Assembly (NCBI GenBank): GCA_035525285.1
Contig: DATLFB010000044.1
Location: 108,441 to 172,440, forward strand
Source: Thermoanaerobaculia bacterium
GTDB taxonomy: Bacteria; Acidobacteriota; Thermoanaerobaculia; Gp7-AA8
Length of the DNA stretch: 64,000 nucleotides
Direction: 5' to 3'
Within the stretch, counting starts at the first letter, position 1. The number at the start of each line of letters is the position of its first letter. Positions 1 to 60,925 of this stretch are shown in pieces. The position numbers were made by a program, and so were the translations under genes. The notes under the pieces are model-generated. The model ran no database searches, was not told where the DNA came from, and worked only from the letters and a program-made list of their open reading frames with translations.

Positions 1-475
1 TGCCGGCGAGCACGCGCGCGAGGAAGACGCGCTTCCGCTCGCCGCCGCTCATCTCGTCGAGGTAGCGGTCGGCGAGATGCGACGCGTCGCACATCGCGAG
101 CGCGCGCGAGGCTTCTTCCCAATCGCGATCGGTTTCCCACGCGAAGCGCCCGAGAAACGGCGCCCGGCCCGAGAGAACCACTTCGATCGCGCGCATCGGA
201 AACGCGGGATCGGGATCCTGCGGGAGATATCCGACGCGGCGCGCGTATTCCTTCGCATGCCACTGAGCGAGCGGCTTGTCTTCGAAGAGCACGTCGCCGC
301 CGTGCGGCGCGAGAACGCGCGCGACGAGCTTCAGCAGCGTCGACTTGCCCGAGCCGTTCGGGCCCGTGAGCGCGACGAGCTGCCGCTCGCCGATCGCCAG
401 CTGTACGTCGCGCACGGCGGCAACATCGGCGTAGGCGTACGAGACGGCGCGGAGCTCGAGCATCATCGTCGTCAT
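1..475 (-). CDS. ABC transporter ATP-binding protein (FecE/FepC/BtuD-like), partial; the C-terminus runs off the window edge
   Basis: I translated the minus strand from the ATG at 475-473 by hand: MTTMMLELRAVSYAYADVAAVRDVQLAIGERQLVALTGPNGSGKSTLLK...LDEMSGGERKRVFLARVLAG. This shows a Walker A (GPNGSGKST) and an ABC signature (MSGGERKRV). It is the last gene of an operon with the permease and binding protein upstream. It is absent from the ORF track only because it is truncated by the window edge. Confidence 0.75.
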   Translation of the reverse strand, partial: MTTMMLELRAVSYAYADVAAVRDVQLAIGERQLVALTGPNGSGKSTLLKLVARVLAPHGGDVLFEDKPLAQWHAKEYARRVGYLPQDPDPAFPMRAIEVVLSGRAPFLGRFAWETDRDWEEASRALAMCDASHLADRYLDEMSGGERKRVFLARVLAG

Positions 476-590
476 TGTGGACTGCGGCGACGCCAGTCGC
501 CGCTTTCTAACACGGCAGCAGGGCTGCCGTGCGCCGCGGCCCTGCCGCGGCGTTGGAAAGCGGCGACTGGCGTCGCCGCAGTCCAAAACG
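476..590. repeat. MITE-like element, first copy (TGGACTGCGGCGACGCCAGTCGCCGC ... GCGGCGACTGGCGTCGCCGCAGTCCA), filling the permease-ATPase intergenic gap
   Basis: Read directly in the sequence. Each inverted repeat is itself a hairpin (gcggcgac-nnnn-gtcgccgc). Confidence 0.85.
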
Positions 591-593
591 AGA

Positions 594-1565
594 TCACGAC
601 GACCTCCGCAGGAGCGAGAGGAAGAAGGGCACGCCGAGGATCGCGGTGAAGGCGCCGATGGGAAGCTCGGTCGTGCGCACGATCGTGCGCGAGGCGAGAT
701 CGGCGGCGACCACCAGCGTCGCGCCGCCGAGAGCGCAGAGCGGAAGGAGAAATCGGAAATCGCGGCGCCAGATCAGGCGGATGAGATGCGGCACGAGGAG
801 GCCGACGAAGCCGATGATGCCGCTCACGGCGACCGCGGCGCCGGTGATGATCGACGCGGCCGTGAAGCCGATCAGCTTCACGCGCTCGACGTCGACGCCG
901 CGCGCTTTCGCATCTTCCTCGCCGAAGACGAGCAGGCGCAGATCGTTGGCCACGAACGCGAGCACGATCATTCCGATCACGAGCAACGAGCTCACCAGCG
1001 CGACATTCGTCCACGTCGCTCCGAAGAGCGTTCCCATCATCCACTTCAGCGCGGCGGTGAGATCGCTTTGCGGCGAGAGTGAAAACGAGATGAGGATGAT
1101 CGCGGAGAAGAAGGCGTTGAGCACGAGTCCCGACAACAACAATCGCGTGGGATCGGTGTGATCGCGGCGGCGCGCGAGAGTGAAGACGGCGGCCGTCGCG
1201 AGAAGCGCGCCCGCGAAGGCAACGAGCGGTACGAGGCCGGGAATGCGGCTCCACTGGAACGCCGTCGCGACGGCCGCGCCACACGCGGCGCCGCCGGAGA
1301 CGCCGAGGATGAAGGGATCGGCGAGCGGATTGCGGAGAAGCGTCTGGAACGTGACGCCCGCGACGGCGAGCGTCGCGCCGATCGCGGCCGCGAGGAGCAC
1401 TCGCGGAAGACGCAGACGAAAGAGGATCATGCGCGCGGTCTCGTCGTTGAAGTCGAGCGCCACCGCGCCGAACGACAACGCGAGGACGATGGCGATGAGC
1501 AGGATGAACGTGAGAACGATGAGCGGTTGCGCGGTTGCGCGGTCACGCGGTTGCGCGCTTGCCAT
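594..1565 (-). CDS. FecCD-family ABC permease (BtuC/FhuB-like iron-siderophore/cobalamin importer)
   Basis: The 323-aa product is hydrophobic and multi-pass, with FecCD-like motifs (LLLSGLVLNAFFSA, GIIGFVGLLVPHLIRL). It lies in an operon with a binding protein and an ATPase. Confidence 0.85.
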   Translation of the reverse strand: MASAQPRDRATAQPLIVLTFILLIAIVLALSFGAVALDFNDETARMILFRLRLPRVLLAAAIGATLAVAGVTFQTLLRNPLADPFILGVSGGAACGAAVATAFQWSRIPGLVPLVAFAGALLATAAVFTLARRRDHTDPTRLLLSGLVLNAFFSAIILISFSLSPQSDLTAALKWMMGTLFGATWTNVALVSSLLVIGMIVLAFVANDLRLLVFGEEDAKARGVDVERVKLIGFTAASIITGAAVAVSGIIGFVGLLVPHLIRLIWRRDFRFLLPLCALGGATLVVAADLASRTIVRTTELPIGAFTAILGVPFFLSLLRRSS

Positions 1566-3074: not shown

Positions 3075-5882
3075 TCATAGCTTGAAGTCCACGGGCACCG
3101 TGATCCACGACTTCACGCGCACGCCATCGACGGTTCCGGGCGTGAACGTGGAGCGGCGCATCGTCTGCTCCGCGGCCTCGTTGAGACCGACCGGGCGATT
3201 GACGCCGCGGATGATGCGCACTTCCATCACCTGGCCGCTCTCCGACACGAGGACGCTCGTCAGCACCGTCCCCTGGACGCGCTGCATGCGCGCGATCGGC
3301 GGATACGGCACGCTGCCGCGGCGCAGAACGCGCGGCGGAGTCAGACCGGCGGTGCCGGCGGCGACGAGCTCTCCTTCGCGAACCGCGGCGCGTGCGGGCG
3401 CCGCGGGCACGGGCGCGGGCTCCTGCTGAGCCGGCGCGGGCGCGGGCTCCTGTTGCACGGGCGCGGGTGCCGGACGCGTCGTCTCTGCCTGTTGCGGCGG
3501 CGGTTGCTGCTGCACGGGCGCCGGAGCGACCGGCTGCGGACGCACGGCAGCGGTCGTCGGCGTCTGCGTCGTTGCACTCGGTTGCTGCGCGCGCGCCTGT
3601 GCTTCGAGCCGCGCACGTTCGGCGGCGAGCCGCTTCTGCACTTCCTGATCGACGAGCGACGGATCGAGCGTCGCGGTTGCGGGCGACGTCGCCGTTGCAT
3701 CGGTCGTTGCCGGCGCAACGCCCGTTGCCGGGGCCGCGGGCGCCTGCGTTCCGGCCGACGCGGTGACCGCGGGTGCAGGCGTCGCGCTCTTGCCTTTCAT
3801 CAGCATCCACGCCACGCCGCCGAGGGCGAGGAGAACGACGGCGCCGATGACGATGATCGGCACCGCCGACGACTTCTTCCGCACCGGCTGTTCCCACGGT
3901 TCCGGCGCGGCGGACGCGGGCTCGACGCGCGCTGCGGCGGCCGGCGCAGCCGCGACGGGCACAGCCGCGATCGGTGCGGGTTTCGGCGCCGGCGCGGGCG
4001 CGGGAGTCGGAGCAACCGGCTCCGGCTCGGGCGCGGGGATCATCACCGGCTCGGTGCTCGACATGCGATGCATGTAGATCGCGAGATCGGCGCTGGTCGG
4101 CGTCGGCTTGAAGGTGTAGAGGATCTGATCGATGTCGCGCGCCATCTCGCCCGCGGTCTGATAACGCGACGCGGAATCTTTCTGCAGTGCCTTGAACACG
4201 ACCGCATCGATTTCCGGCGTGACTTCCTCGTTGAACTGCGAGGGCGGCGTGACGCGCGCCTCGCGCACCTGCTCGAGGATCGAGAGCTCGCTGTCGCCGG
4301 TGAAGAGCTTGCGATTCGTGAGCATCTCGAAGAGCACGGTCGCGAGCGCGAAGATGTCCGAGCGGCGATCGATCGAGCGGCCCCACGCCTGCTCCGGCGA
4401 CATGTACTGCAGCTTGCCCTTCAGCGCCCCGGCCTGCGTATGCGAGGCCTTCGACGCGGCCTTGGCGATGCCGAAGTCGCAGAGCTTGATGTCGCCTTCC
4501 TGCGAGATGAGCACGTTCTGCGGCGAGACGTCGCGATGCACGAGTCCCATCTCGCGCTCCTCGAAGTCCTTCTTGCGATGCGCGTAGTCGAGCGCGGAGG
4601 CGATCTTCGAGGCGATGAAGAGCGCCAGCTCGACGGCCATCGGATGATCGCGCTCTTCGCCGCGGCGCAGGATCGCCTTCAGATCGTACCCGTCGATGTA
4701 CTCCATCGCGATGTAGTACGAGTTCTGAATTTTTCCGAGGTCGTAGATGTGAATGATGTTGTTGTGATTGAGCTGCGCGGCGAGCTTCGCCTCGTCGACG
4801 AACATCTCGACGAAGTCCTGGTTGTCGGAGAGATGCGGAAGGATCTTCTTGATCGCGACGATCTTCTGGAATCCTTCCACGCCGCGCATGCGCGCCTTCC
4901 AGACTTCCGCCATTCCGCCGGTGGCGATCTTCTCGATCAGCACGTACTGGCCGAACTTGACGCCGTCCGTCGGCTCTTCTTCCTCGATGCGCGCGGCCTC
5001 CGGGGCGGCCTGCGGAAACACCGGCTGCGACACCGGCACGCGATCGGGAACGTAGGCCTGCATCCGCGCGGTGTTGAACTTCTTCTCCGGGACCGGCGCG
5101 GGTGGCGCGGCGGGAGGCGGCGCGGGTGCAGGTGCCGGCGGCGCGGGCACGGGCACATTGCCGCCGCTCGTCGTTTTGCGCGCGCTCTTCTCGAGACCGG
5201 AGAGCGTGTCGGAGAGCATCTTGTCGAGACCCGACGTCGATGTGCGCGGCGCTTTCGCCTGCTGCGCCGGCGGCGCGGCAGAGGGCGGCGGTACAGGCGC
5301 GGCCGGCTGCGCTTCCTTCCTCCGCTGCGGCATCAGGCCGGACAGCGTGTCCGCCACCATCTTGTCGACTTCGCTCGTCGATTTGCCCATCATCGTCTTT
5401 CTCGGCGCCGCCGGTTTCTCGTCTTCGAGGAGGTCGCCGAAGATCTCAGTGGAGGTCAGTCCGGGCTCGGCCGGACGAACCGTGAACTCGTCGTGCAGCG
5501 GCGCATCGGCGCGGATGCCGAGCATCTGCTGCACTTTGCCGAGGAACTCACTTTCGGAGTAGGGCTTCGGAAGGATGTCCGACGCGCCGACGCGCTGCGC
5601 GTCCGCCTTCGGACTCTTCCCGTTGTAGCCGGAGACGGTGAGAAGGATCGGCGTCTCCTGCAGCGGCTTGCGGCCGCGGATGTTGCGGATCAACTCCGTC
5701 GTGCTGACTTTGGGGACGACCGAGGAGAGGACGATGAGGCGCGGCGGCGAGCCGTCGAGAACGCGAATCGCCTCCTCTCCGTCCTTCGCGAACGTGGGGG
5801 TGAAGGGCTGGCCCGCCAGGGCCTGCCGCACGCGGTCGGTATAGCGAGGCTCGTACTCGACGACGAGAATGTTTTCAGACAT
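3075..5882 (-). CDS. multidomain membrane Ser/Thr protein kinase: N-terminal pseudo-receiver, Pro-rich linker with a repeated TSTSGLDKMLSDTLSGL motif, Hanks-type kinase, one TM helix, long Pro/Ala/Gln linker, and a C-terminal TonB_C domain
   Basis: Kinase motifs are present (ATGGMAEVWKA, HRDVSPQNVLIS, DFGIAKA). The receiver-like N-terminus lacks the phospho-acceptor Asp (LIVLSS). A hydrophobic helix (VPIIVIGAVVLLALGGVAWMLM) follows the kinase. The C-terminus (PYPPIARMQRVQGTVLTSVLVSESGQVMEVRIIRG...VPVDFKL) matches the TonB C-terminal fold. Confidence 0.85.
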   Translation of the reverse strand: MSENILVVEYEPRYTDRVRQALAGQPFTPTFAKDGEEAIRVLDGSPPRLIVLSSVVPKVSTTELIRNIRGRKPLQETPILLTVSGYNGKSPKADAQRVGASDILPKPYSESEFLGKVQQMLGIRADAPLHDEFTVRPAEPGLTSTEIFGDLLEDEKPAAPRKTMMGKSTSEVDKMVADTLSGLMPQRRKEAQPAAPVPPPSAAPPAQQAKAPRTSTSGLDKMLSDTLSGLEKSARKTTSGGNVPVPAPPAPAPAPPPAAPPAPVPEKKFNTARMQAYVPDRVPVSQPVFPQAAPEAARIEEEEPTDGVKFGQYVLIEKIATGGMAEVWKARMRGVEGFQKIVAIKKILPHLSDNQDFVEMFVDEAKLAAQLNHNNIIHIYDLGKIQNSYYIAMEYIDGYDLKAILRRGEERDHPMAVELALFIASKIASALDYAHRKKDFEEREMGLVHRDVSPQNVLISQEGDIKLCDFGIAKAASKASHTQAGALKGKLQYMSPEQAWGRSIDRRSDIFALATVLFEMLTNRKLFTGDSELSILEQVREARVTPPSQFNEEVTPEIDAVVFKALQKDSASRYQTAGEMARDIDQILYTFKPTPTSADLAIYMHRMSSTEPVMIPAPEPEPVAPTPAPAPAPKPAPIAAVPVAAAPAAAARVEPASAAPEPWEQPVRKKSSAVPIIVIGAVVLLALGGVAWMLMKGKSATPAPAVTASAGTQAPAAPATGVAPATTDATATSPATATLDPSLVDQEVQKRLAAERARLEAQARAQQPSATTQTPTTAAVRPQPVAPAPVQQQPPPQQAETTRPAPAPVQQEPAPAPAQQEPAPVPAAPARAAVREGELVAAGTAGLTPPRVLRRGSVPYPPIARMQRVQGTVLTSVLVSESGQVMEVRIIRGVNRPVGLNEAAEQTMRRSTFTPGTVDGVRVKSWITVPVDFKL

Positions 5883-5934: not shown

Positions 5935-6067
5935 GCGAGCCGAAGGTAAAAGGTAAAAGGAAAAAGGTAAAAGTGGCCAAGCCAGGATCCGCGCGTTTCG
6001 AGGCTCTGCCACTTTTGGCCTTTTACCTTTTACCCTTTGCCTTTTACCTTTTACCTTTTACCTTTTA
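5935..6067. repeat. mirror tandem-array hairpin with a GGTAAAA-type unit (about 4 copies), a 42-nt spacer, and TTTTACC-type units (about 7 copies)
   Basis: Read directly in the sequence (aaaggtaaaaggtaaaagg...ccttttaccttttaccctttgcc...). It lies in the rho 5' leader. Confidence 0.85.
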
Positions 6068-6231
6068 CCTCGCCCTCGCTTGCTTTTCCGAAAATCGTTT
6101 TGCATACTGTCGTCCGCACCTCGCGCGACGAACCATCCCGCTCGGCGTTGAGACCTGACTCTCCGCCACGACGTCGTCGGTTCCCAGAGACTCGAGAGGT
6201 GAAAGCTCAGTTGGCAGTTGATTGAGTTCAA

Positions 6232-11832: not shown

Positions 11833-11857
11833 AGCTCTGCATAGGTTGCATTCGCTC

Positions 11858-11965
11858 GTCATCCCGAGCGTGAGCGAGGGACCTGGGGGCTCGGGAGGGC
11901 GCATGAATGTTCGTTTCTCGCCCCGCCCAACCACCCAGGTTCCTCGCTCACGCTTCGGAATGACA
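11858..11965. repeat. large palindromic element of the GTCATYCCGAGCG...CGCTCGGRATGAC family (translates as SLTLGMT)
   Basis: gtcatcccgagcgtgagcgagggacc ... ggttcctcgctcacgcttcggaatgaca. It lies between convergent genes. The same family occurs at 47700-47770 and 60761-60854. Confidence 0.85.
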
Positions 11966-17316: not shown

Positions 17317-17333
17317 CGCTGTTATCCTTCGAG

Positions 17334-17381
17334 GAGGGCGGACGTCTCGTCCGCCCTGGCGGACGGGACGTCCGCCCTCCA
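17334..17381. repeat. nested palindromic element GGAGGGCGGACGTCYCGTCCGCC-N-GGCGGACGGGACGTCCGCCCTCC
   Basis: An exact inverted repeat. Each arm is itself a palindrome. The element ends 4 nt before the kinase ATG at 17386. Further copies at 50728, 59982 and 62503 lie inside coding genes. Confidence 0.9.
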
Positions 17382-17385
17382 TACC

Positions 17386-21545: not shown

Positions 21546-22448
21546 TCATTCCTCGAGAATTTTCCAGATTTTCCCCGCACTTCCGTGCTCCAGGACATTT
21601 CGTCGCAGCGCGTGATTCATGACGATGGAGTCGAGAAGAACGAGCTCATCATCGTCGGTCGGATCGGCGAGCGTGATTCCGAGCGTGCGCGCGACTTCTT
21701 CGACCGTCCGGTCGTGCATCGCGGCGATCGATTCGGAGACCGGTTTCGCGGGATTCACTTCATGCGCGATCGCGAGCGCGTTGCCCCGGAGGATGAACGT
21801 CGCGCAGCGCTGACCGGCGAGCCACTCGAGCGCCGCGGCGAGCGTGACGAGGTGCCAGTTGCGGTGCCGGCGATAGAGCTTCGCGATTCCTCGATTGCGC
21901 TCGCCGGCGGGCTTGTAGACGTTCGGCTGCACTTCCCAGATCAGCGCGACGCCGTGCGCGCTGTCGAACGTGCCCGACGTCTCGCCGACGGATCCGGGGA
22001 TCGTGTGCTGCTGCCCCTCGCTCTGTCCGATCGCGATCGCGTCCTCGAGCTCGCGCGCGACGACGTCGAAGGAGATGGTCTCCGCGCGCCCGCCGAAGTG
22101 CGCGTTGCGTCCGAGGACCAGGATGCCGCGATCCGCGTCGCGCAGAGGAATCGCGGCGCCCGATGCGCGTCCTTCCGCTTCGCGCGGATGCCACAGGCTC
22201 GCCGTCGGCTTTCCCGCGAGCCACAGAGGATGATTACGGCGCAGAAAGCGTTCGACCACACGCGCGCGAATCGTCAGCGTGTCTTCAGGCCGCAGCTCGG
22301 CGACGGATGCCGCGTCCTCGGCGATGTCGGAAAACACCTCGAGGACCTCGTCGCCCAGCCCGAGGTAGAGGTCGTAGAGCGCAGCCTTGGTCGCGGGTTG
22401 GACGCCGTGGGTGTTGAGGATGCGGTCGATGTGAGAGGGGAAAGGCAT
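21546..22448 (-). CDS. conserved hypothetical protein, 300 aa
   Basis: A long ORF in the same orientation between rimO and dusB. No motif recognised. Confidence 0.5.
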   Translation of the reverse strand: MPFPSHIDRILNTHGVQPATKAALYDLYLGLGDEVLEVFSDIAEDAASVAELRPEDTLTIRARVVERFLRRNHPLWLAGKPTASLWHPREAEGRASGAAIPLRDADRGILVLGRNAHFGGRAETISFDVVARELEDAIAIGQSEGQQHTIPGSVGETSGTFDSAHGVALIWEVQPNVYKPAGERNRGIAKLYRRHRNWHLVTLAAALEWLAGQRCATFILRGNALAIAHEVNPAKPVSESIAAMHDRTVEEVARTLGITLADPTDDDELVLLDSIVMNHALRRNVLEHGSAGKIWKILEE

Positions 22449-22540
22449 CAGCGATGAACGATGAACGATGAACGATGAACGATGAATTATGAACGATGAA
22501 TGACGTGCGATCGTTCATCGTTCATCGTTCATCGTCATGC
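22447..22540. repeat. mirror tandem-array hairpin of the GATGAAC/GTTCATC unit family (second copy of the 2657-2749 family)
   Basis: gatgaacgatgaacgatgaacgatgaac...cgttcatcgttcatcgttcatcgtcat. Confidence 0.9.
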
Positions 22541-27687: not shown

Positions 27688-27729
27688 AGGTCAGCGTGTA
27701 AACCACCGGCAGCGTACCATATGTTCCGC

Positions 27730-27810
27730 GGGTTGCCCGGTAACCCGGTTGCCCGGTTTCCCAGTGTGTTTTTCTCCGGGCAACCGGGCGACTGGGCAAC
27801 CGGGCAACCA
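27730..27810. repeat. octamer mirror-array element (CCGGTTGC/GCAACCGG family)
   Basis: gggttgcccggtaacccggttgcccggtttcccagtgtg...ccgggcaaccgggcgactgggcaaccgggcaacc. Confidence 0.85.
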
Positions 27811-27814
27811 CACC

Positions 27815-28384
27815 TCACCCCACTGTGCGATCCCGCGCCCTCCAGTCCTTTTCCATGTCCGCGAGGAAGCTCGACAGATCGTCCGCGTGCTCCTCTTCGA
27901 CCGCCAGGATCGACTCGAGCATCCGGCGCGTGGTGATGTCGTCGTCGCCGATGTAGCGGATCATTTCCGTGTAGGAATCGATGGCCACGCGCTCGGCGAC
28001 GAGGTCTTCGCGGATCATCTCGACGAGAGTGTTTCCCTCCACGTACTCGGAGTGCGAGCGCGTCAGCAGCCCGTCGGGACTGAAGTTCGGCGAGCCGCCG
28101 AGCTGCACGATGCGCGCGGCGATCTGATCGGCGTGTCCCTGCTCTTCATTCGCATGCGTGAGGAATTCCGAGGCGATCGGATCGGCGTGGATGCCCTGGG
28201 CCATGAAGTAGTGGCGCTTGTAGCGGAGCACGCAGACGATCTCGGTCGCGAGCGCCTCGTTGAGGATCCTGATCACCGTCTCGCGGTTCGCGCGGTAGCC
28301 ATCGGTGACAGCGCCCGTCTCGATGTGCTGCCGGGCCCGGCGGCGCAACTCCTGGACGTCGGTGAGGAACGGCTTGTCGGTCAT
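27815..28384 (-). CDS. bacterioferritin-like (ferritin-like diiron) protein
   Basis: It aligns by eye to Bfr (LNEALATEIVCVLRYKRHYFMAQG, EEQGHADQIAARIVQLGG, ILAVEEEHADDL). Confidence 0.75.
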   Translation of the reverse strand: MTDKPFLTDVQELRRRARQHIETGAVTDGYRANRETVIRILNEALATEIVCVLRYKRHYFMAQGIHADPIASEFLTHANEEQGHADQIAARIVQLGGSPNFSPDGLLTRSHSEYVEGNTLVEMIREDLVAERVAIDSYTEMIRYIGDDDITTRRMLESILAVEEEHADDLSSFLADMEKDWRARDRTVG

Positions 28385-30227: not shown

Positions 30228-30322
30228 AGGTTCGAGGTTCGAGGTTCGAGGTTCGAGGTCAGAATGAAGAGGCAGTCTCTCTCTTCATTCGTCCTTCGAA
30301 CCTCGCACCTCGAACCTCGGCT
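30228..30322. repeat. mirror tandem-array hairpin: (GAGGTTC)x5, a spacer, then GAACCTC units
   Basis: gaggttcgaggttcgaggttcgaggttcgaggtc...ccttcgaacctcgcacctcgaacctcgg. Confidence 0.9.
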
Positions 30323-31045: not shown

Positions 31046-31120
31046 GGGAGAGAAAAGCCTCCGTGCGAAGAGCGGGAACTCTGGTTCGTCCGCGCGCAAC
31101 CGTCAACGTCTCAGGAGGAT

Positions 31121-31212
31121 TCCCGGTTGCCCGGTTGCCCGGTTGCCCGGTTGCCCGGTAGCCCGGTAAGCGGCACACTGGGAAACCGGGCGACTGGGCA
31201 ACCGGGCAACTC
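31121..31212. repeat. octamer mirror-array element (CCGGTTGC/GCAACCGG family), in the opposite orientation to the copy at 27730
   Basis: cccggttgcccggttgcccggttgcccggttgcccggtagcccggtaagcggcacactgggaaaccgggcgactgggcaaccgggcaac. The core cacactggg here is the reverse complement of cccagtgtg at 27760. Confidence 0.85.
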
Positions 31213-31251
31213 GTGCCCAAGCGGTACAATCGTTGCACCCGGAGCGAGACT

Positions 31252-41100: not shown

Positions 41101-41479
41101 TCGCTGCTCTCCGCGAAACGAGGAGGGGCTCCCAATGGGAGCCCCTTGTCGTCTGCGCGTACCGCGCCGGGCGTTTCTCACTTCCCCGCCATGATACTTC
41201 CTGTTTTCTTACACGTGCCGTGATGAGCCCTGACGGCGGCGCTCAGTACGGCGGTCGTGTATTGGCGCACAAATGGACCCACTTGCGCATCCATTGATCC
41301 ACCATATCGTGCATTTTCGGGCCAAATAGCGCAACGCCTGACCCATCTCGCCGACGTCGTGAAAATGCTCGATGCGCCTAAGTGAGTGTGGCTCAATGAG
41401 TTGGATGCTTTTTCACCGAATGGGCGCCGCATCCGCTAAGTCGAATCGCCCGAAAGCAACGTGGAAGGAGCATCAATTC

Positions 41480-43123
41480 ATGAAACGAGTCCTCATCATG
41501 GCCCTGGCAGTATTGATGACGCCAGTTGTATTCGCGTCGAACGGAGAGATCCGGCGGAACAGCCGGGCGATCAAAGATCAGTACATCGTCGTGTTCAGGG
41601 CCGGCGCTGTGCGTGATGTGCCGGCGGCCGCGGCGGAGATGGCGCGGATGAACGGCGGCCGGCTGGGCCATGTGTACAGCCGGGCGTTGCAGGGATTTTC
41701 CGTCGAACTGTCCGAAGGCCGGGCCCGCGCGCTCGCGAAGGATCCCCGCGTGGAGTACGTGGAAGAGGACGGCCAGGTGACGCTCGGGGCGACGCAGAGC
41801 AACGCCACCTGGGGACTCGACCGCATCGACCAGCGCGATCTGCCGCTGAGCGGTAGCTATACGTACAACTACACCGGCTCGGGAGTGAAGGCCTACATCA
41901 TCGACACCGGGATCCTGGCCTCGCACAACGAGTTCGGCGGCCGGGTGGTCAGCGGTTACACCGCCATCAGCGACGGCCGGGGCACGACCGACTGCAACGG
42001 CCACGGCACGCACGTCGCGGGCACGGTGGGCGGCGCGACGTACGGCGTGGCCAGGAGCGTGACTCTCGTTCCGGTGCGCGTGCTGGACTGCAACGGATCG
42101 GGCACGAATTCCGGCGTGATCGCGGGCGTCGACTGGGTCACGTCCAATCACGGCGCGGGCCAGCCCGCCGTCGCGAACATGTCGCTGGGCGGCGGGGCCA
42201 GCTCGGCGCTCGATACCGCCGTCAACAACTCCATCAACGACGGCGTGACCTACGCCGTGGCGTCGGGCAACGACAATAAAGACGCCTGCAACTACTCGCC
42301 GGCGCGCGTGGCTGCCGCGATCACCGTCAACTCCAGCACCTCGTCGGACGCGCGCTCCTCGTTCTCGAACTGGGGCACGTGCACGGACATCTTCGCTCCG
42401 GGCTCGAGCATCACTTCCGCGTGGTACACGAGCAACACCGCGACGAACACGATCAGCGGCACGTCGATGGCCACGCCTCACGTGGCCGGCGTCGGTGCGC
42501 TGTATCTCCAGTCCAACACAAGCGCCTCGCCATCGACGGTCTGGGCGGCGATCCGCGACAGCGCGACACTGAACAAGATCACCAGCGCCGGGAGCGGCTC
42601 GCCGAACCGCCTGCTCTACTCGCTTCTCAGCAGCGGCGGAGGCGGCACGACCACGCAGCTTCTGAGCAACCCGGGATTCGAGTCGGGCAACAACGGCGCC
42701 TGGACCACGACCTCCGGCGTGATCACGAATTCCACCTCGCGCACGCCGCAGGCCGGCTCGTGGTACGCATGGCTCTGCGGCTACGGTTCCTCGCATACCG
42801 ATTACGCCTACCAGCAGATCTCGATCCCGTCGGGTGCCACCGCGGCGACTCTGAATTTCTATCTGAAGATCGACACGGCCGAGACGACCACGAGCACGGC
42901 GTACGACAAGATGTCGGTGCAGATTCTCAACTCCTCCGGGAGCCTTCTGGCGACTCTGGCGACGTATTCGAATCTGAACAAGAGCTCGTCCTATTCGCTC
43001 AAATCCTTCGACCTCCTCGCGTACAAGGGGCAGACCATCCGGGTCCGCTTCTACGCGACGGAGGACAGCATCTACCAGACTTCGTTCCTCGTCGACACGA
43101 CATCACTGAACGTGACCCAGTAA
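41480..43123 (+). CDS. secreted subtilisin-like serine protease (S8) with a C-terminal beta-sandwich domain
   Basis: A GGAAGGAG Shine-Dalgarno precedes the start. Signal peptide ends ...FASNG. I9 segment (YIVVFRAG), then HGTHVAGT and [11 protein letters not shown]. About 170 extra C-terminal residues. Confidence 0.85.
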
Positions 43124-43191
43124 GTCAATCAACAACCGACTGACCCGCCTGAAGCGGCAGTCAACAGTCAACAGCAGGAGGATGTATCGCT

Positions 43192-44451
43192 ATGCACGGG
43201 AAAAAGTCCAGGTTGATCGTCATCTCCATCGTGGTTCTCTCCGCCGTCATCTCATCTGCACTCTGGGCGCAGTCACGTTCCGACGATCGTGAATTCACCC
43301 CGCGTGTCCGTCAGGAAGTGACTCTGCCGGTCATCGTGGTCCTGCGCGACGACGTGACGGTTCAGGCCAGTACGCCAGTCGACGTGATGCTCGATGAACG
43401 GGCCGTCGCCGCGCCCGAGGCCTGGTCCTATCTGAGCGCATCGGTGGTGGGCAGCGTCCGGTCGCTGGAGAATAGTCACGGATTCAAGGCCGAGCACGTC
43501 TACAGCGCGGCCCTGCGCGGTTTCTCGGCCCGGTTGTCGGCCCGGCAGATCGAGGCGCTGGAGCTCGATCCTCGCGTCGATTACATCGAGCCCGATGGAA
43601 CGATGCACATCATCGCCCAGACTCTTCCCTGGGGCATCGACAAGATCGACGCCGACGTCAGCTCCACTCTGGCCGGCAACGGCAGCGGAGCGATCACGAA
43701 CGTCAACGCCTATGTCATCGATACGGGCATCGATACCCACACGGATCTCAACCTGGTCGGGCACGTGAATTTCGCCGGCGGTCCGAACAAGGACTGCAAC
43801 GGTCACGGCACGCATGTGGCCGGAACGGTGGCGGCGAAGGACAACACGCAGGACGTGGTCGGCGTGGCGCCGGGCGCACCGCTGACCGGCGTGAAAGTCC
43901 TCGGCTGCGGCGGGAGCGGCACGACCTCGGGCGTGATCAAAGGCGTCGACTGGGTCACCGCGAACGCCAAAAAGCCGGCCGTGGCGAACATGTCCCTCGG
44001 CGGCAGTGCGAGCACGGCTCTCGATGACGCCGTTCGCAACTCGGCGAACAGCGGCGTGTTCTACGCCCTGGCCGCCGGCAATGACGGTGCCGACGCCTGC
44101 AACTCGTCGCCGGCACGCGCCGGTGCGGGAACCAATAACGGCATCATGACCGTTGCCGCGACCGACAGCGCCGACAAGGAAGCCTCCTGGAGCAACTACG
44201 GCAACTGCGTCGACATCTGGGCGCCCGGCGTGAGCATCCTCTCCACGAAGAAGGGCGGCGGCACCACCACGCTGTCCGGTACGTCGATGGCTTCGCCGCA
44301 CGGCGCGGGCGGCGGCGCGCTGTATCTCTCATCGCATACGGGTGCCAGCCCGTCCACGGTCGAAGGCGCGCTCAAGAGCGCGGCCACGACCACGGCCAAC
44401 AAGAGCAAAGACGGCCGGACCATCACCCGCGAGAATGTCGGCAGCTTCTGA
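43192..44451 (+). CDS. secreted subtilisin-like serine protease (S8)
   Basis: An AGGAGG Shine-Dalgarno precedes the start. A signal peptide is followed by HGTHVAGT and GTSMASPHGAG. Confidence 0.85.
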   Translation: MHGKKSRLIVISIVVLSAVISSALWAQSRSDDREFTPRVRQEVTLPVIVVLRDDVTVQASTPVDVMLDERAVAAPEAWSYLSASVVGSVRSLENSHGFKAEHVYSAALRGFSARLSARQIEALELDPRVDYIEPDGTMHIIAQTLPWGIDKIDADVSSTLAGNGSGAITNVNAYVIDTGIDTHTDLNLVGHVNFAGGPNKDCNGHGTHVAGTVAAKDNTQDVVGVAPGAPLTGVKVLGCGGSGTTSGVIKGVDWVTANAKKPAVANMSLGGSASTALDDAVRNSANSGVFYALAAGNDGADACNSSPARAGAGTNNGIMTVAATDSADKEASWSNYGNCVDIWAPGVSILSTKKGGGTTTLSGTSMASPHGAGGGALYLSSHTGASPSTVEGALKSAATTTANKSKDGRTITRENVGSF

Positions 44452-44591
44452 TTCTGACCACGTCGAATACACGTACCCCATCGAGCGGCGGCTCCCGCGA
44501 AGGAGCCGCCGCAGGGGCCTGTGGATCCGGCGGAAGCGAGGAAGAACGGCGCACCGTGCCGGCTCCCCACAACTGAGAGAGGAGCACATTA

Positions 44592-45731
44592 ATGAAGCGA
44601 TTCACGACCATCGTCCTGACATTTTTCTTCACCGTTCCCATCCTGGCCGGCAACGGCGATTTTCGCCGCGCCGGCGGAAAAGCAATCAAGGGTCAATACA
44701 TCGTAGTGCTCGAAGATCACGTCGCCGACGTTCGCGGTGCGGCGGCCGTGCTCTCGCGCATGCACGGCGGCGACGTCGGCTACGTTTATGAGAGCGCGCT
44801 GCGAGGCTACTCGGTGCGAATGCCGGAAATGGCCGCGCGCGGACTGGCCCACGACCCGTACGTCAAGTACGTCGAAGAGGACGGCGAGGTGTCGATCAAC
44901 ACGACCCAGACGTCGCCCGTCTGGGGCCTGGACCGGATCGATCAGCGCAATTTGCCTTTGAGCAATTCGTTCACGTACACGTACACGGGAAGCGGGGTTC
45001 GCGTGTACGTCATCGATACCGGCATTCGAACGTCTCACGGCGAGTTCGAAGGCCGTGCTTCACGGGTCTACGACGCCTTTGGCGGCAACGGCAGCGATTG
45101 CAACGGTCACGGAACGCACGTGGCCGGGACGGTGGGCGGAAAGACCTATGGCGTTGCCAAGAAGGCCTATCTTCGCGCCGTGCGCGTTCTCGACTGCGGC
45201 GGATCCGGTACGTGGTCTCAGATCATTGCGGGCGTGGACTGGGTGAGGGCCAATCACATCAAGCCGGCCGTTGCAAACATGAGCCTGGGCGGCGGAGCCA
45301 ACAGCTCGGTCGACACGGCCGTCAATAATCTGATCAACGCCGGAGTCACCGTGGTCGTCGCCGCGGGAAACAGCAACGCCAATGCCTGTAACTACTCGCC
45401 CGCTCGCGTAGGAGCGGCAATCACGGTCGGCTCGACTACGTCGACGGACGCCCGCTCTTCGTTCTCCAACTACGGCTCGTGCCTTGATCTTTTCGCACCC
45501 GGCTCGAGCATCAAGTCGGCGTGGTACACGAGCGACACGGCGACGAACACGATCAGCGGAACATCGATGGCATCCCCTCACGCAGCCGGCGTCGCGGCGC
45601 AGTATCTCCACCGTTTCGGCAACCAGTCTCCGTCCACGGTGCGCAATGCGCTGGTCAACAACGCAACGAGCGGAGTTTTATCGAGTATCGGAAGCGGATC
45701 GCCGAACCGCCTTCTCTTCACCAATTACTAA
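44592..45731 (+). CDS. secreted subtilisin-like serine protease (S8), close paralog of 41480-43123
   Basis: Signal peptide ends ...LAGNG. I9 segment (YIVVLEDHV), then GHGTHVAGT and GTSMASPHAAG. Confidence 0.85.
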   Translation: MKRFTTIVLTFFFTVPILAGNGDFRRAGGKAIKGQYIVVLEDHVADVRGAAAVLSRMHGGDVGYVYESALRGYSVRMPEMAARGLAHDPYVKYVEEDGEVSINTTQTSPVWGLDRIDQRNLPLSNSFTYTYTGSGVRVYVIDTGIRTSHGEFEGRASRVYDAFGGNGSDCNGHGTHVAGTVGGKTYGVAKKAYLRAVRVLDCGGSGTWSQIIAGVDWVRANHIKPAVANMSLGGGANSSVDTAVNNLINAGVTVVVAAGNSNANACNYSPARVGAAITVGSTTSTDARSSFSNYGSCLDLFAPGSSIKSAWYTSDTATNTISGTSMASPHAAGVAAQYLHRFGNQSPSTVRNALVNNATSGVLSSIGSGSPNRLLFTNY

Positions 45732-50456: not shown

Positions 50457-51272
50457 TCAGCGACCGACTCCCTGTGACGTTTCGGTCGCTTCTTTTTTCT
50501 TCTCTTTTGCATGTTGCCGCGCGGCGTCGACGAATGCCCCGAACAACGTCGAGGCGCTGCCCTCCCCGCTCATGTCCTCCGGGTGCCACTGCACGCCGAC
50601 GTAGAACGGATGCCGCGGGTCCTCGAGCCCTTCGATGATGCCGTCGGGCGCGTGCGCGGTGACGGTCAGGCCCTCGCCGACGCGGCCGATGGCCTGATGG
50701 TGCGAGGAGTTCACGTTGAGCTCGAGAGGAGGGCGGACGTCCCGTCCGCCGTCGCCCAGGCGGACGGGACGTCCGCCCTCCATTCCGCCGAGGATCTTCG
50801 CCAGCTTCGTGCCGCCCTCGATGATCACGTCGTGCCGCGCGCGGTCTTCCGGCACGCTGGCGTGCGCGATCTCCGTTTCGACCTGCGCGGCGATGTCCTG
50901 CACGAGCGAGCCGCCCGCGGCGACGTTCATGACCTGCACGCCGAGGCAGATGCCGAGGACGGGGATGCCGCGGTCGCGCGCGGCTTTCGCGAGGGAGACG
51001 TCGTTGCTCTGGCGGCGCGGGTCCATCGGCTCGACCGTGGGATGGCGGTCTTCGCCGTACAGCGCGGGGTCGCAGTCGTCGCCTCCCGCGAGCAGCACGC
51101 CGTCGAGCTCGCTCACGAGCTCAGCCGCGTTCTCGGGCTGCGGCGGGATGAGCACAGGAATCGCGCCGGCGCGCCGCAGCGCGTCGACATAGGTGAGATA
51201 GATGAAGGCACGCTCGCGCTTGCCTGGCGGGCTCTGGACGTCGGATCCGATTCCGATGATGGGCTTGATCAT
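50457..51272 (-). CDS. gamma-glutamyl-gamma-aminobutyrate hydrolase family protein (peptidase C26, class I glutamine amidotransferase-like)
   Basis: Contains GICLGVQ (Cys nucleophile) and HHQAIGRVG...VGVQWHPE. An in-frame copy of the 54-bp nested palindrome sits at 50728-50781. Confidence 0.75.
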   Translation of the reverse strand: MIKPIIGIGSDVQSPPGKRERAFIYLTYVDALRRAGAIPVLIPPQPENAAELVSELDGVLLAGGDDCDPALYGEDRHPTVEPMDPRRQSNDVSLAKAARDRGIPVLGICLGVQVMNVAAGGSLVQDIAAQVETEIAHASVPEDRARHDVIIEGGTKLAKILGGMEGGRPVRLGDGGRDVRPPLELNVNSSHHQAIGRVGEGLTVTAHAPDGIIEGLEDPRHPFYVGVQWHPEDMSGEGSASTLFGAFVDAARQHAKEKKKEATETSQGVGR

Positions 51273-56459: not shown

Positions 56460-56805
56460 ACGTAGCGGCGGGCTTTAGCCCGCCTACGGGGCCGACCGGC
56501 TGAAGCCGATCGGAGATCGGCGGACCGGCCGACTGAAAGTCGGCGTTCCGTTTTCGAGTAGCGCGGCCTTCCAGGCCGCCGTGTCGCTGGCTTCCAGCCA
56601 GCGATGTCGCCGGCAGGATGCCGGCGTTACGGCGGGCAGGATGCCCGCGCTACAACTCCCGCTTGGGCAACGGTCATGGAACGCCGACATGCTGTCGGCC
56701 GGTCCGCCGACTTCCAGTCGGCGGGTTTTGACGCCGATCGGAAATCGGCGGACCGGCCGACTGAAAGTCGGCGTTCCGTTTCGAGAAAAAGGTAGGCGGT
56801 CGCTA
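56460..56805. repeat. hairpin-dense non-coding region with two direct copies of about 55 nt
   Basis: GCCGATCGGA(G/A)ATCGGCGGACCGGCCGACTGAAAGTCGGCGTTCCGTTT occurs at 56506-56556 and 56733-56790. At least five more stem-loops lie between them. One (ccgccgacttccagtcggcgg + gttttg) looks like a terminator. Confidence 0.8.
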
Positions 56806-57701: not shown

Positions 57702-58482
57702 GTTTCCTCTTTCCCGCGCCCGCGAGACTCGCCTCGAGGACGTCGGCGAGCTGCTCTTCGCGCTTCGGCTTCCGCGGGCGGAAGACTTTCATCTTCACCT
57801 TCCCACCCTCGGCCTTCGTTTCGACGAGCTCCATCACCCGCGCGCGGTACTCATCCCGATATTGCGAGGGATCGAGCTCGCCGTGCAGCGCTTCGAGCAG
57901 CTGCGCGGCCATGTCGAGCTCGCGCTTCTGCATCGGACGTCCGCCCGGCGGCTTCAGCGCGTCGGCGGCGATGATCTCGTCCGCGTGCCGCAGGACGATG
58001 AGCATCAGATGGCCCTCCTCTTCGCGCAGCGCACCCGCGTACGCGCGGTCGCGCATCACCCACTTCGCGATCGCCTGTTTGTTTTTCTTCCTCAGCGCCT
58101 CGGCGAGCGCAAAGTAGGCCTTCGTGTTGCCGTCGGGTCCGAGGTAGTACGCGCGCTCGTACCAGCGTTGATCGACGTCCGCGGGATCGACGAAACGCGT
58201 GATCGCGATGTCGCGCGATTCTTCCGGCTCGAGCGTTTCCAGCTCCTCGTCCTCGAGGACGACCATCCGCCCGCGCGACACCGGATACGCTTTCCTCACC
58301 TCGGCGTACTCGACCGGCTTGCCGCTCTCCGAGCTCACGAGTTGCTGCTTGACGGGTTGCTTGTCGGTCTTGTGCAACAGGCGGAAGTGCACCGTGCGAT
58401 CGGTGACTCCGGAGTAGAGCTTCACCGGCACCTCGATCGAGCCAACATGAATGACGCCTTTCCACATCGCGCGTGCGGCCAT
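57694..58482 (-). CDS. ku: Ku protein, second paralog; its stop overlaps the first Ku start by 8 nt
   Basis: MAARAMWKGVIHVGSIEVPVKLY is the Ku N-terminus. I chose the ATG at 58482. The ORF-track start at 58584 runs into a palindromic element. Confidence 0.8.
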   Translation of the reverse strand: MAARAMWKGVIHVGSIEVPVKLYSGVTDRTVHFRLLHKTDKQPVKQQLVSSESGKPVEYAEVRKAYPVSRGRMVVLEDEELETLEPEESRDIAITRFVDPADVDQRWYERAYYLGPDGNTKAYFALAEALRKKNKQAIAKWVMRDRAYAGALREEEGHLMLIVLRHADEIIAADALKPPGGRPMQKRELDMAAQLLEALHGELDPSQYRDEYRARVMELVETKAEGGKVKMKVFRPRKPKREEQLADVLEASLAGAGKRKHG

Positions 58483-58514
58483 GCCGAGGATCATTGCAAA
58501 TGGAACGCCGCCTG

Positions 58515-58592
58515 TGTGGAGTGCGGCGACGCCAGTCGCCGCTTCTCTACGCGCATACAACAGCGGCGACTGGCGTCGCCGCACTCCACATC
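58515..58592. repeat. MITE-like element with terminal inverted repeats of about 30 bp (TGGAGTGCGGCGACGCCAGTCGCCGC...GCGGCGACTGGCGTCGCCGCACTCCA)
   Basis: The same inverted repeats, with a longer internal spacer, occur at 476-590 between the ABC ATPase and permease genes. Confidence 0.85.
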
Positions 58593-60765
58593 ACTTCACC
58601 CAGATCCGCGAACTGTCCCGCCTGCCCTGCGCGTCGATCGCCGTAATCACGTGCATGCCGGGCGCGAGCGGCCACTCGAGCGAGCCGCCGGGCGATGACG
58701 AGCCGATGCGGCGGTCGTCGATGTGCCAGGCGACGCGCGTCGCGGCAAGCGCGCGGAGGCGCAGGGTCTGGAACTCGCTGCGCAGCGTGGGATCGATCAG
58801 GTACGTCGCGCCGTCCGGCGGATTTGCGATCTCGAGCGGAGCGCGGTGCATCGTCGCGGTCTGCGCGCGCTGCGGCGGCAGCCAGCCGCGATATTCGGCG
58901 GGCCAGTCGATCCAATGGTCGTGATGCCACGAACAGAATCGCGGCGCGGCGTCGACGGGCAGCCATTCCTTGCGCAGCGAGTCGCACCACTGCGTCGGAC
59001 GCGCACCGGAGAGCGCGCAGATCTCGACGGACTCGACATCGGCAGTCGGCGCGACGATCGGCGTCGAGTCGCCGATGGGCAGCGTGCCCCGCGCGCGTTT
59101 CATCGCCGCGAGCATCACCGCGTGAAAGACCGGCGCGGCGCCGGTGACGCCGGTCGAGCCGCGCAGCGGCCGCAGGTCGAAGTTGCCGACCCACACGCCG
59201 ACGGTGACGTCTTTCGTGTAGCCGATCGTCCAGTTGTCGCGATACGACTGCGAGGTTCCCGTCTTCACGGCGACGGGAAACGGGAAGTCGAGACTGCCGC
59301 CGGTGCCGAAGGCGTAGGCGCGCGCTTCGGGGTCGGCGAGGATGTCGGTGATCCAGAACGCGGTGCGCTTCGCGAAGGGTTGCCCGGTTGCCCGGTTGCC
59401 CGGTTGCCCGGCGAAGAGTGAATAGGCTTTGACGAGTTGCTCTAAGGTCACCTCGGCGTCGCCGAGTGTCAGGCCGAGGCCGTAGTAGTCCGCGGTGCGC
59501 TGCAGATCCGTGAATCCCGCGTTGCGCAGCAATCGCAGCAGCGCCTCGGGGCCGAGTTTCGAGAGCATCGCTACCGCGGGGACGTTCTGCGATCCCGCGA
59601 GCGCCGCGCGGATGCGGAGCGGGCCGCGATAGCGGCCGTCGTAGTTGCGCGGCGAGTAGACGATGCCTTCCTCGGCGGTCGGGAAGTGCGAGGGAACATC
59701 GGCGAGGACGGTCGCGGGCGTCTCGCCGCTCTCGAACGCGAGTGCGTACGTGAACGGCTTCAGCGCCGATCCCGGCTGGCGCGGCGTGGTGACGCCGTCG
59801 ATCGCACCGCCGAAGCCCTCGCCGAAGTAGTCGCCGGAGCCTTCCCATGCGAGCCACTCGCCGCTCGCGTTGTCGAGCACGGCGACCGCGACGCTCGACG
59901 CGCCGTGGCGGAGGAGCTCTTTCCTGTGCGCGTCGATGATGCCGATGACGTCGCGTTGCAGGTCTGCGTCGAGCGTGGTGAGGAGGGCGGACGTCTCGTC
60001 CGCCCCGCGGGGGGCGGACGAGGACGTCCGCCCTCCAAGGACACGCTCGACGAAGTGCATCGCCAGCACGGGCTGCGCGCCGCGCACGAACCGCAAGCGC
60101 TCCGCGCGCGCGAGCGCGAGCTCCTGCGGCGTCAACTGCATCCGCGCGAGCACGTGCAGTTGCCTCGCGCGCGCGCGCTGCGCGTCGCGCCGCGGATTGA
60201 ACGCGCCCGGCCGCTGCGGCAGCGACGCGAGAAACGCGGCCTGCGCGGGCGTGAGGTTCTCCGGCGCGCAGCCGAAGTACGCGCGGCTCGCGCGCGCGGC
60301 GCCGGTGATGCGGTTTCCGTACGGCGCGAGGTTGAGGTACATCGCGAGGATCTCGCGCTTCGTGTAGCGATGTTCGAGCCGGAGGGCGACGACGCTTTCG
60401 CGCCACTTCGAGCGCAGCGAGCGGTCGCGCGATTGCAGGATCAGCTTCGCGACCTGCTGCGTGATCGTCGAGCCGCCTTCGACGACGCGCATCGCGCGCA
60501 CGTTGTGTGCCGCGGCGCGGGACACCGCAATCGGATCGATGCCGATGTGCGAGAAGAATCGCCGATCCTCGGCCGCGAGCGTCGCGTCGACGATGCGCGG
60601 AGGGAGCGCATCCGCGCTCAGCCATTCCGTCCGGTTGCCGCTCGCGCCGAGGGACTCGTAGAGGACTTCGCCGTGACGGTCGACGATCGTGACGTGACGC
60701 GGAGTTTCGATGTGCGGGATCGGGCCGAGGCGGAGCCACGCCACGAACGCGATCACCGCTGTCAT
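58591..60765 (-). CDS. pbpC: penicillin-binding protein 1C (GT51 transglycosylase, transpeptidase, PbpC C-terminal domain)
   Basis: Contains EDRRFFSHIGIDP...GGSTITQQVAK (GT51) and a transpeptidase core. It lies directly downstream of the alpha-2-macroglobulin gene. Start placed at MTAVIAFV (60765). In-frame repeat copies sit at 59378-59411 and 59982-60036. Confidence 0.85.
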   Translation of the reverse strand: MTAVIAFVAWLRLGPIPHIETPRHVTIVDRHGEVLYESLGASGNRTEWLSADALPPRIVDATLAAEDRRFFSHIGIDPIAVSRAAAHNVRAMRVVEGGSTITQQVAKLILQSRDRSLRSKWRESVVALRLEHRYTKREILAMYLNLAPYGNRITGAARASRAYFGCAPENLTPAQAAFLASLPQRPGAFNPRRDAQRARARQLHVLARMQLTPQELALARAERLRFVRGAQPVLAMHFVERVLGGRTSSSAPRGADETSALLTTLDADLQRDVIGIIDAHRKELLRHGASSVAVAVLDNASGEWLAWEGSGDYFGEGFGGAIDGVTTPRQPGSALKPFTYALAFESGETPATVLADVPSHFPTAEEGIVYSPRNYDGRYRGPLRIRAALAGSQNVPAVAMLSKLGPEALLRLLRNAGFTDLQRTADYYGLGLTLGDAEVTLEQLVKAYSLFAGQPGNRATGQPFAKRTAFWITDILADPEARAYAFGTGGSLDFPFPVAVKTGTSQSYRDNWTIGYTKDVTVGVWVGNFDLRPLRGSTGVTGAAPVFHAVMLAAMKRARGTLPIGDSTPIVAPTADVESVEICALSGARPTQWCDSLRKEWLPVDAAPRFCSWHHDHWIDWPAEYRGWLPPQRAQTATMHRAPLEIANPPDGATYLIDPTLRSEFQTLRLRALAATRVAWHIDDRRIGSSSPGGSLEWPLAPGMHVITAIDAQGRRDSSRIWVK

Positions 60766-60925
60766 CCCGAGCGCAGCGAGGGACCTGGGGGTCAGGGCGG
60801 CGCGAGCACGGCGCCACCCGCCCGCCCGGGTCCCTCGCTCACGCTCGGGATGACGTGGGGTCACTTCTCCACCTCCACCGGGGTCACTTCTCCACCTCCA
60901 CGTGGGGTCACTTCTGCACCTCCAC
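60761..60925. repeat. SLTLGMT-family palindrome (60761-60854) followed by 3 tandem copies of a GGGGTCACTTCTCCACCTCCAC unit of about 23 bp (60855-60925)
   Basis: gtcatcccgagcgcagcgagggacc...ggtccctcgctcacgctcgggatgac, then gtggggtcacttctccacctccaccg repeated three times. Confidence 0.85.

Follow-up and report, generated by a model that had tools for sequence, protein, structure and literature searches.

Two near-perfect palindromes in the window (the whole stretch of 64,000 nucleotides analysed here) are true copies of a widespread hairpin repeat family of soil Acidobacteriota (Thermoanaerobaculia). In all likelihood they are copies of a REP family arranged as inverted doublets of REP hairpins, similar to REPINs and BIMEs, which goes together with a REP-associated tyrosine transposase (RAYT) and would be spread by it. 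The system is a REP/BIME (REPIN)-RAYT system that carries a GGAGT tag instead of GTAG, and not a target-duplicating MITE.

Results

Two hairpin doublets in the window

The original prediction had placed palindromes at two loci, and near-perfect palindromes are found at both, at 476-587 (element 1) and 58515-58590 (element 2). The starts given earlier are exact, and the ends, set at 590 and 58592, have been moved to 587 and 58590; an unrepeated core is present in each element as proposed, with lengths of about 47 nt and about 18 nt in place of the 45 bp and 14 bp first given. Each repeat had also been described as a hairpin in its own right, which agrees with the folding of every arm as an 8-bp hairpin. 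The arms consist of TNT-GGA(G/C)T followed by the hairpin GCGGCGAC-GCCA-GTCGCCGC. The 20-nt core has four copies in the window, where chance predicts 0.18, and none of 100 shuffles reached four. In a repeat search of the window, the arms of element 1 were recovered as inverted repeat I2 (56 nt, 88% complementary) and those of element 2 as I15 (38 nt, 89% complementary). The RNA fold of element 1 has an energy of -108 kcal/mol (z -14.4) and that of element 2, in which a 20-nt spacer separates the two hairpins, of -72.6 kcal/mol (z -9.6); no part of the window matched an Rfam covariance model at its gathering score. The parts of both elements are collected in Table 1.

Table 1. Parts of the two elements and of the adjoining genes, in window coordinates
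Feature	Position	Strand	Description	Evidence
ABC ATPase gene	461..475	-	start region	
Element 1	476..587		four-hairpin REP doublet (REPIN/BIME-like), long class, 112 nt	repeat search, fold and full-length alignment
Element 1, left terminus	476..483	+	TGT-GGACT (family consensus TNT-GGAGT); 5' tag unpaired within the unit	
Element 1, REP hairpin 1	484..503	+	GCGGCGAC-GCCA-GTCGCCGC	core match; 8-bp stem covariation
Element 1, inner hairpin 2	511..531		CACGGCAGC-AGG-GCTGCCGTG	fold; position conserved in long class
Element 1, inner hairpin 3	532..552		CGCCGCGGC-CCT-GCCGCGGCG	fold; long-class alignment
Element 1, REP hairpin 4	560..579	-	core inverted	core match
Element 1, right terminus	580..587	-	AGTCC-AAA, inverted tag; has the change complementing the C of the left tag	
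FecCD-family permease	594..596	-	stop codon TGA, 6 nt from element 1	
ku	58480..58482	-	start codon, 32 nt from element 2	262-aa NCBI protein P0121
Element 2	58515..58590		two-hairpin REP doublet, short class, 76 nt	repeat search and fold
Element 2, left terminus	58515-58522		TGT-GGAGT	
Element 2, REP hairpin	58523..58542	+	core	core match
Element 2, inverted REP hairpin	58563..58582	-	TGTTGTAT follows on the transcribed minus strand	core match; terminator-like in consensus scan
Element 2, right terminus	58583-58590		ACTCC-ACA	
pbpC	58591..58593	-	stop codon TGA, 0 nt to the element 2 terminus	same stop position in orthologues L109 and L111

The gene contexts are those first described, an ABC importer operon and the interval between pbpC and ku. 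All the genes that flank the two elements lie on the minus strand, and both elements are found within co-directional gene pairs. Element 1 is placed between two genes of the importer operon, after the stop of the FecCD permease and before the start of the ABC ATPase, the first ATG of which (475-473) adjoins the element, with a second ATG (463-461) corresponding to the start used by an orthologue from an empty site. Element 2 is located between the pbpC stop and the ku start. The repeat is translated (…RRRQSPLLYARREAATGVAAL…) in the longest ku ORF (GTG at 58584; window 58494-58584), which runs through element 2, and the RAYT ORF at locus L177, described below, likewise has translated repeat (WSAATPVAAL) at its tail. 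Repeats of this kind can mislead the calling of starts and stops, and they have entered both of these ORF calls, at the 5' end for ku and at the tail for the RAYT.

A hairpin repeat family shared by Thermoanaerobaculia genomes

Further copies, for which a search had been proposed together with the original prediction, are present in hundreds of places in related genomes. The exact 20-mer was found at more than 104 loci in contigs representing one genome per species, at least 96 of these in Thermoanaerobaculia/Acidobacteriota MAGs. Among the matches listed, SMAG_U3224 has 42 loci, SMAG_U3305 16, SMAG_U12094 12, KAL bin4 11 and MFD09212.bin.1.4 8, with 7 more in other Thermoanaerobaculia/Acidobacteriota MAGs; 8 of the matches listed belong to other taxa and are mostly devoid of the tag. 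An exact 25-mer that includes the tag is present in 118 metagenome stretches, some of them on contigs of 300-660 kb from single assemblies. The window belongs to a Thermoanaerobaculia MAG; its genes share only about 75% DNA identity with those of the other MAGs, and the repeat core is identical. Short-read assemblies are broken by these repeats, as seen from the many 20-mer matches at contig ends, and the Logan contig that carries the permease gene of the window ends about 30 nt beyond the gene, at the start of the element.

The unit is composed of TNT-GGA(G/C)T, GCGG-NNNN, a loop that is mostly GCCA, NNNN-CCGC and T(T/C)T(C/G), the stem being GC and 8 bp long. The T's flanking the tag (positions -3 and -1) are kept in 83-94% of unit ends, and the tag is GGAGT in most units and GGACT in a minority; the invariance of GGA(G/C)T, which the search patterns demanded, is no independent result. 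Units are found mostly as doublets with their tags pointing outward, and between genes. The genome loci gave 55 complete doublets, a number that rose to 147-154 with the metagenome loci included. They fall into two length classes, one of 60-73 nt with two hairpins (mode about 70), in which the units are separated by a short spacer, and one of 100-112 nt with four hairpins (mode about 105), in which two further hairpins separate them. The short-class spacers show no conservation, and element 1 aligns end to end with members of the 105-nt class (L138, L195 and L190). Many seeming singletons turned out to be paired with a hairpin of a different inner stem, and single units as well as three- and four-hairpin mosaics of a BIME-like kind also exist.

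The inner four base pairs of the stem occur as CGAC/GTCG, CAGC/GCTG, TAGC/GCTA, CAAC/GTTG, TGAC/GTCA, TGGC/GCCA and CGGC/GCCG, and every one of these variants is compensated. Over 38 distinct units, pairing is kept in 99.3% of the cells; 35 cells, belonging to three pairs, are changed on both sides, and none of 500 shuffles matched this. In long-class elements whose interiors are near-identical, the outer hairpins may differ in stem, each of them paired within itself and unmatched to the other arm. As the arms differ yet each is self-paired, what is conserved is the individual hairpin and not the complementarity between the termini.

Pairing between the two outer tags (the GGACT/AGTCC variants) was considered as well and rejected, with only 3 double changes and 13 single ones (Fisher p 0.012, a value confounded by relatedness). 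Integron attC sites and CRISPR arrays were also set aside, the repeats being devoid of GTTRRRY core sites and of regular spacing and their neighbours being housekeeping genes.

A repeat-flanked RAYT gene in related contigs

A regular-expression search for HUH motifs detected no RAYT in the 64-kb window or in the first 104 genome loci. A profile HMM made from 60 RayT-family proteins gave nothing significant in the genome loci, the best hit (E 0.31) being later recognized as the N-terminal part of the relic at L014 described below, and a protein database search with a RAYT consensus listed 120 PF01797 proteins, none labelled Thermoanaerobaculia and none from the fingerprint contigs. In the metagenome loci, the RayT-family HMM had one clear match (E 2e-11), at locus L177, which is part of a 422-kb contig. 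The ORF at 1275-1850 of this locus is intact and codes for 191 aa, with a YFVTAGTY segment, the HUH motif SNHYHLVV and the tyrosine motif RYTHENAVHHG, and both motifs align with those of a typical RayT protein. The best NCBIfam match of the protein is NF047646, REP-associated tyrosine transposase (REP_Tyr_transpos), covering positions 6-146 of 146 with 75.8 bits (E 3e-21), just under the cut-off of 80; it scores 23.5 bits against Pfam Y1_Tnp (cut-off 23), and its comparison with solved structures gave no significant sequence match.

The L177 gene is flanked by two complete doublets, at about 1143-1226 and 1807-1880, each with one CAAC-stem and one CGAC-stem arm in identical order. The ORF ends in codons provided by the right-hand doublet, the outer end of which adjoins the stop codon of a convergent neighbour. 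A tblastn search with the L177 protein disclosed a second, decayed homologue in the Thermoanaerobaculia MAG SMAG_U3224 (L014, minus strand, about 4079-3575). This homologue keeps SNHYHLV, is frameshifted and has no tyrosine segment; a cluster of REP-like hairpins stands in place of its N-terminal part, and the 3' end of the homologue enters REP units beside a doublet at 3453-3543. Judged from sequence, REPs flanking a predicted RAYT gene in these related contigs represent the REPtron arrangement. About 1.5 Mb of sequence, all of it chosen for carrying the repeat, yielded only two RAYT loci, of which one is a pseudogene, so that the association rests on position and not on numbers.

Clustering of all the ORFs near the elements in this 1.5 Mb showed signalling paralogues as the only recurring genes, and no recurrent transposase-like gene. 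The transposases found by HMM and regular-expression searches of the same loci were Y1 proteins only, with no DDE-encoding parent IS bearing the same termini.

Probable mobility without target-site duplication

The view of a mobile-looking element with conserved inverted termini and a variable interior, put forward at the outset, is upheld: the element is dispersed, non-autonomous, and present or absent at an orthologous site. In the case of SMAG_U12094, five unlinked copies of about 105 nt share 94-98% identity in their interiors. The permease/ATPase junction is empty at L106 (permease 90% identical), where TAATG forms an overlapping stop and start, and is occupied in the window by the 112 nt of element 1.

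MITEs are descended from IS elements that encode DDE transposases, and their insertion leaves a duplicated target. A classical MITE, that is, an IS deletion derivative whose terminal inverted repeats are recognized by a DDE transposase and whose target is duplicated on insertion, would agree with the inverted termini of about 30 nt, the variable interior, the dispersed copies and the presence or absence at one junction, and element 1 is bordered by TGATCTCG on its left side and TGATGCTCG on its right, which resemble an imperfect duplication of 8-9 nt. The test for target-site duplications in 54 elements did not find any: the flanks gave a local alignment score of 9.65 against 9.24 for the null, and abutting 2-5-mers were at chance level. 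The duplication at element 1 is therefore rejected as a general rule, and a defining feature of MITEs is removed. An IS with matching ends, the other mark by which a MITE was to be recognized, was not found in the 1.5 Mb around the copies. The differing inner stems within one element, the existence of single units and mosaics, the signalling paralogues as the only gene family recurring beside the elements and the Y1 enzyme as the only transposase nearby all speak against a MITE as well, and we consider such an origin extremely improbable. The first interpretation as a MITE has therefore been abandoned in favour of the alternative offered with it, a REP-type element, which is the one that fits an adjoining transposase of the Y1/HUH REP-associated tyrosine type.

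Other palindromes and turnover at orthologous sites

In addition to the GGAGT elements, the window and its relatives contain other palindromes. A second palindromic family (GAGGAGGGCGGACGTC...GACGTCCGCCCTCC) is found in the window at 59966-60020, inside pbpC, and at 17331-17385, 50726-50786 and 62501-62554. The pbpC copy constitutes a 14-residue in-frame insertion (SSSAPRGADETSAL) in the protein of the window, which the L111 orthologue does not have, and another copy lies inside an alpha-2-macroglobulin ORF. Hairpins made of tandem 7-8-mers are located at 27723-27816, 31109-31223, 59370-59419, 2643-2755, 22443-22511, 5935-6079 and 30233-30319; in each, an array of (GGTTGCCC)n, (AACGATG)n, (AAGGTAAA)n or (CGAGGTT)n in one arm faces its own reverse complement in the other, and the hairpin often occupies the entire intergenic gap. 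The one at 59370-59419, inside pbpC, encodes GQPGNRATGQP at a place where the orthologue has unrelated residues. An inverted-repeat family (CGTCATCCCGAGCGTGAGCGAGGGACC...) at 11857-11959 and 60814-60855 is shared with the MAG loci L016, L017, L058 and L100, and the region 56501-56781, between a small gene and a second ku gene, is a composite of related hairpins (GCCGATCGGAGATCGGC, GCCGACTGAAAGTCGGC) in direct and inverted copies (D19, I4, I8). At L052 (2160-2330), a four-hairpin GGAGT element is nested in a larger unrelated palindrome (GGAGCGCCGGCG ... CGCCGGCGCTCC); a few GGAGT elements have extended inverted similarity in their flanks. The direct repeats D3-D8 of the window correspond to three tandem paralogous genes for subtilisin-like (S8) peptidases (41372-45728).

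Some orthologous sites are filled differently in different genomes. The permease/ATPase junction of L107 (84% identical), which lies on a 5.08-Mb contig, is filled by a different palindrome, made of tandem heptamers. After the pbpC stop, the palindrome of L109 belongs to the family and differs in its stems; that of L111 is unrelated and follows TGTGGAGC. Between two divergent genes, L052 and L064 have family members with four and two hairpins, respectively, and L049 has a heptamer-repeat hairpin at the orthologous site. The heptamer hairpins (GTTGCTG)n...(CAGCAAC)n of L107 (3985-4085) and L049 (3955-4045) stand at orthologous intergenic sites of GGAGT elements (in the window, L052 and L064), which means that palindrome families turn over at one site. 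As other palindrome families can replace GGAGT elements, a site-level process or selection may operate besides transposition.

In this regard, a general palindrome-making process, such as template switching or hairpin-primed repair at gene ends, which would also be the source of the tandem-heptamer hairpins and would need no dedicated transposase, could be invoked, since many unrelated families of intergenic palindromes, some made of tandem 7-8-mers, exist in the window and its relatives and sometimes stand where GGAGT elements are found elsewhere. Such a process leaves unexplained both how one 25-30-nt sequence, its tag and loop fixed, comes to be shared by species with a gene identity of only about 75%, and the REPtron arrangement, and it is a very improbable origin for the GGAGT family.

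Placement directly after stop codons

The elements often begin right after the stop of a gene. Of 109 element ends, 28 have a stop triplet before TNT, against about 2.5% expected from base composition; these stops are real gene ends, and the abutment recurs in the independent metagenome set. Where a unique unit end has a stop no more than 40 nt away (130 cases), the distance from stop to GGAGT is exactly the 3 nt of TNT in 50, the next counts being 16, 10 and 5 at 4, 5 and 6 nt. Several convergent gene pairs (L020, L082 and L092) have their two stops directly against the opposite ends of a single element, with a gap of at most 1 nt on one side at L096 and L047. Three of the five near-identical, and presumably recent, copies of SMAG_U12094 abut a stop.

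It is conceivable, if doubtful, that REP insertion is aimed directly 3' of the stop codon (T-R-R followed by TNT-GGAGT), by a short-target rule like that of IS200/IS605 elements. The abutment of recent-looking copies is a slight argument for targeting over slow compaction; the same pattern could arise if spacer DNA were slowly deleted or if selection acted once the elements had inserted.

The same placement has to be weighed in relation to the hosts. The hairpins might be regulatory signals of the host (stop-proximal terminators, protectors of mRNA 3' ends or binding sites of a host protein), selected and homogenized by recombination or gene conversion, with the RAYTs being coincidental. Besides the 50 of 130 unit ends located exactly 3 nt past a stop, this proposal draws on the TTTC or TCTC that follows the hairpin, on the one arm flagged as terminator-like, on the conserved GCCA loop, suggestive of sequence-specific recognition, and on the different palindromes that fill orthologous sites in different species. 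In a terminator consensus scan, one arm of element 2 and no arm of element 1 passed, and the counts were at the level of shuffled sequences; the stem is there, and the consensus tail is only TTTC/TCTC, a U-tract that seems too short for a canonical intrinsic terminator. Moreover, the window copies lie inside co-directional gene pairs, one of which is translationally coupled in a relative. The identical 25-mers at hundreds of non-orthologous sites require a copying mechanism, and neither the near-identical copies of about 105 nt at unlinked loci nor an intact RAYT sandwiched by two complete elements and a second one invaded by elements agree with host signals and a coincidental transposase. We therefore regard a purely host-derived origin as unlikely. 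A host function and mobilization by a RAYT are compatible and not mutually exclusive.

Discussion

REP/REPIN-RAYT systems are recognized by a set of features, most of which are found here: a high-copy, mostly extragenic, GC-rich palindrome of 20-40 nt, a conserved unpaired tag, inverted doublets, sub-families with compensated stems, the absence of target-site duplications, and a flanking Y1/HUH gene, seen outside the window at L177 and L014. The tag departs from this pattern, being GGAGT (GGACT in a minority) and neither GTAG nor CGTC. Of the features of a MITE, the family has the terminal inverted repeats.

A number of reports describe systems with which this family can be compared. The REPtron arrangement is known from E. 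coli and other bacteria (PMC3333891, PMC8266576), and RAYTs are recognized by such a repeat-flanked arrangement (PMC3733652, PMC3116915). The REP/BIME repeats of E. coli and their TnpA-REP (RayT) (PMC3333891, PMC8266576, PMC3479197) share with the present family the short GC-rich extragenic palindromes behind a conserved unpaired motif, the inverted pairs of units with variable linkers, the Y1/HUH gene flanked by repeats and the lack of target duplication. They differ in the tag, which is GTAG in E. coli and TNT-GGAGT here, and in the stem, which is bulged in E. coli, whereas here its 8 bp are perfectly palindromic around a 4-nt loop, as in the "second group" REPs of PMC8266576. The host is also different, belonging to the Acidobacteriota, and the RAYT is a divergent one, just under the NCBIfam cut-off, with an activity that is predicted from its sequence.

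In the case of the REPIN-RAYT systems of Pseudomonas (PMC3116915, PMC3337134, PMC5581495), two inverted REPs likewise make up one hairpin-forming unit that seems to replicate as a whole, near-identical whole copies are found at unlinked loci, the family persists across related species and a RAYT lies beside the repeats. In contrast with those systems, the spacers of the short class are not conserved here, the arms often have different compensated stems and the four-hairpin form is common. The GTAG and CGTC superfamilies of REPs (PMC3733652) are similar in their tagged stem-loops with stems of 6-9 bp, in the sub-families with alternative complementary stem residues, in the head-to-head dimers with tags outside and 20-100 bp apart, and in their location mainly downstream of genes with occasional intragenic copies; the present tag is neither of the two, GGAG differing from GTAG at position 2. 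In that survey, no GTAG or CGTC repeats are listed for the Acidobacteria, where the tyrosine transposases are flanked by long TIRs (PMC3733652). Bacterial MITEs, such as those of the Correia/NEMIS type, are also small, non-coding and dispersed, have inverted termini and are often co-transcribed with genes; unlike them, the present elements lack target duplications (54 elements) and a parent IS in the 1.5 Mb around the copies.

By analogy with TnpA-REP and the IS200/IS605 enzymes, the RAYT would bind the folded, single-stranded hairpin together with its 5' tag, and would then cut and rejoin the bound REP in the manner of IS200/IS605-type enzymes. Units or whole doublets might thereby spread without generating duplications.

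As the genes around both window copies form co-directional pairs, the two elements are probably transcribed within them. Their very stable stem-loops may then act as barriers to mRNA decay, slowing it in the 3'-to-5' direction, or as partial terminators. Element 1 would, in addition, break the translational coupling between permease and ATPase that is seen in a relative. Located at a junction that is coupled in this relative, its stem-loop of -108 kcal/mol likely alters the relative expression of the subunits of the ABC importer.

All together, our results extend the range of REP-RAYT systems to the Thermoanaerobaculia (Acidobacteriota), a hardly cultured soil lineage, the new points being the GGAGT tag, the perfect-palindrome hairpin and the divergent RAYT. 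If insertion is indeed targeted to stop codons, the gene ends would offer a safe harbour to the element and the hairpin would be placed so as to act on mRNA 3' ends. The abutment on stop codons and the turnover of palindrome families at individual sites could provide a clue to how these elements choose or keep their sites.
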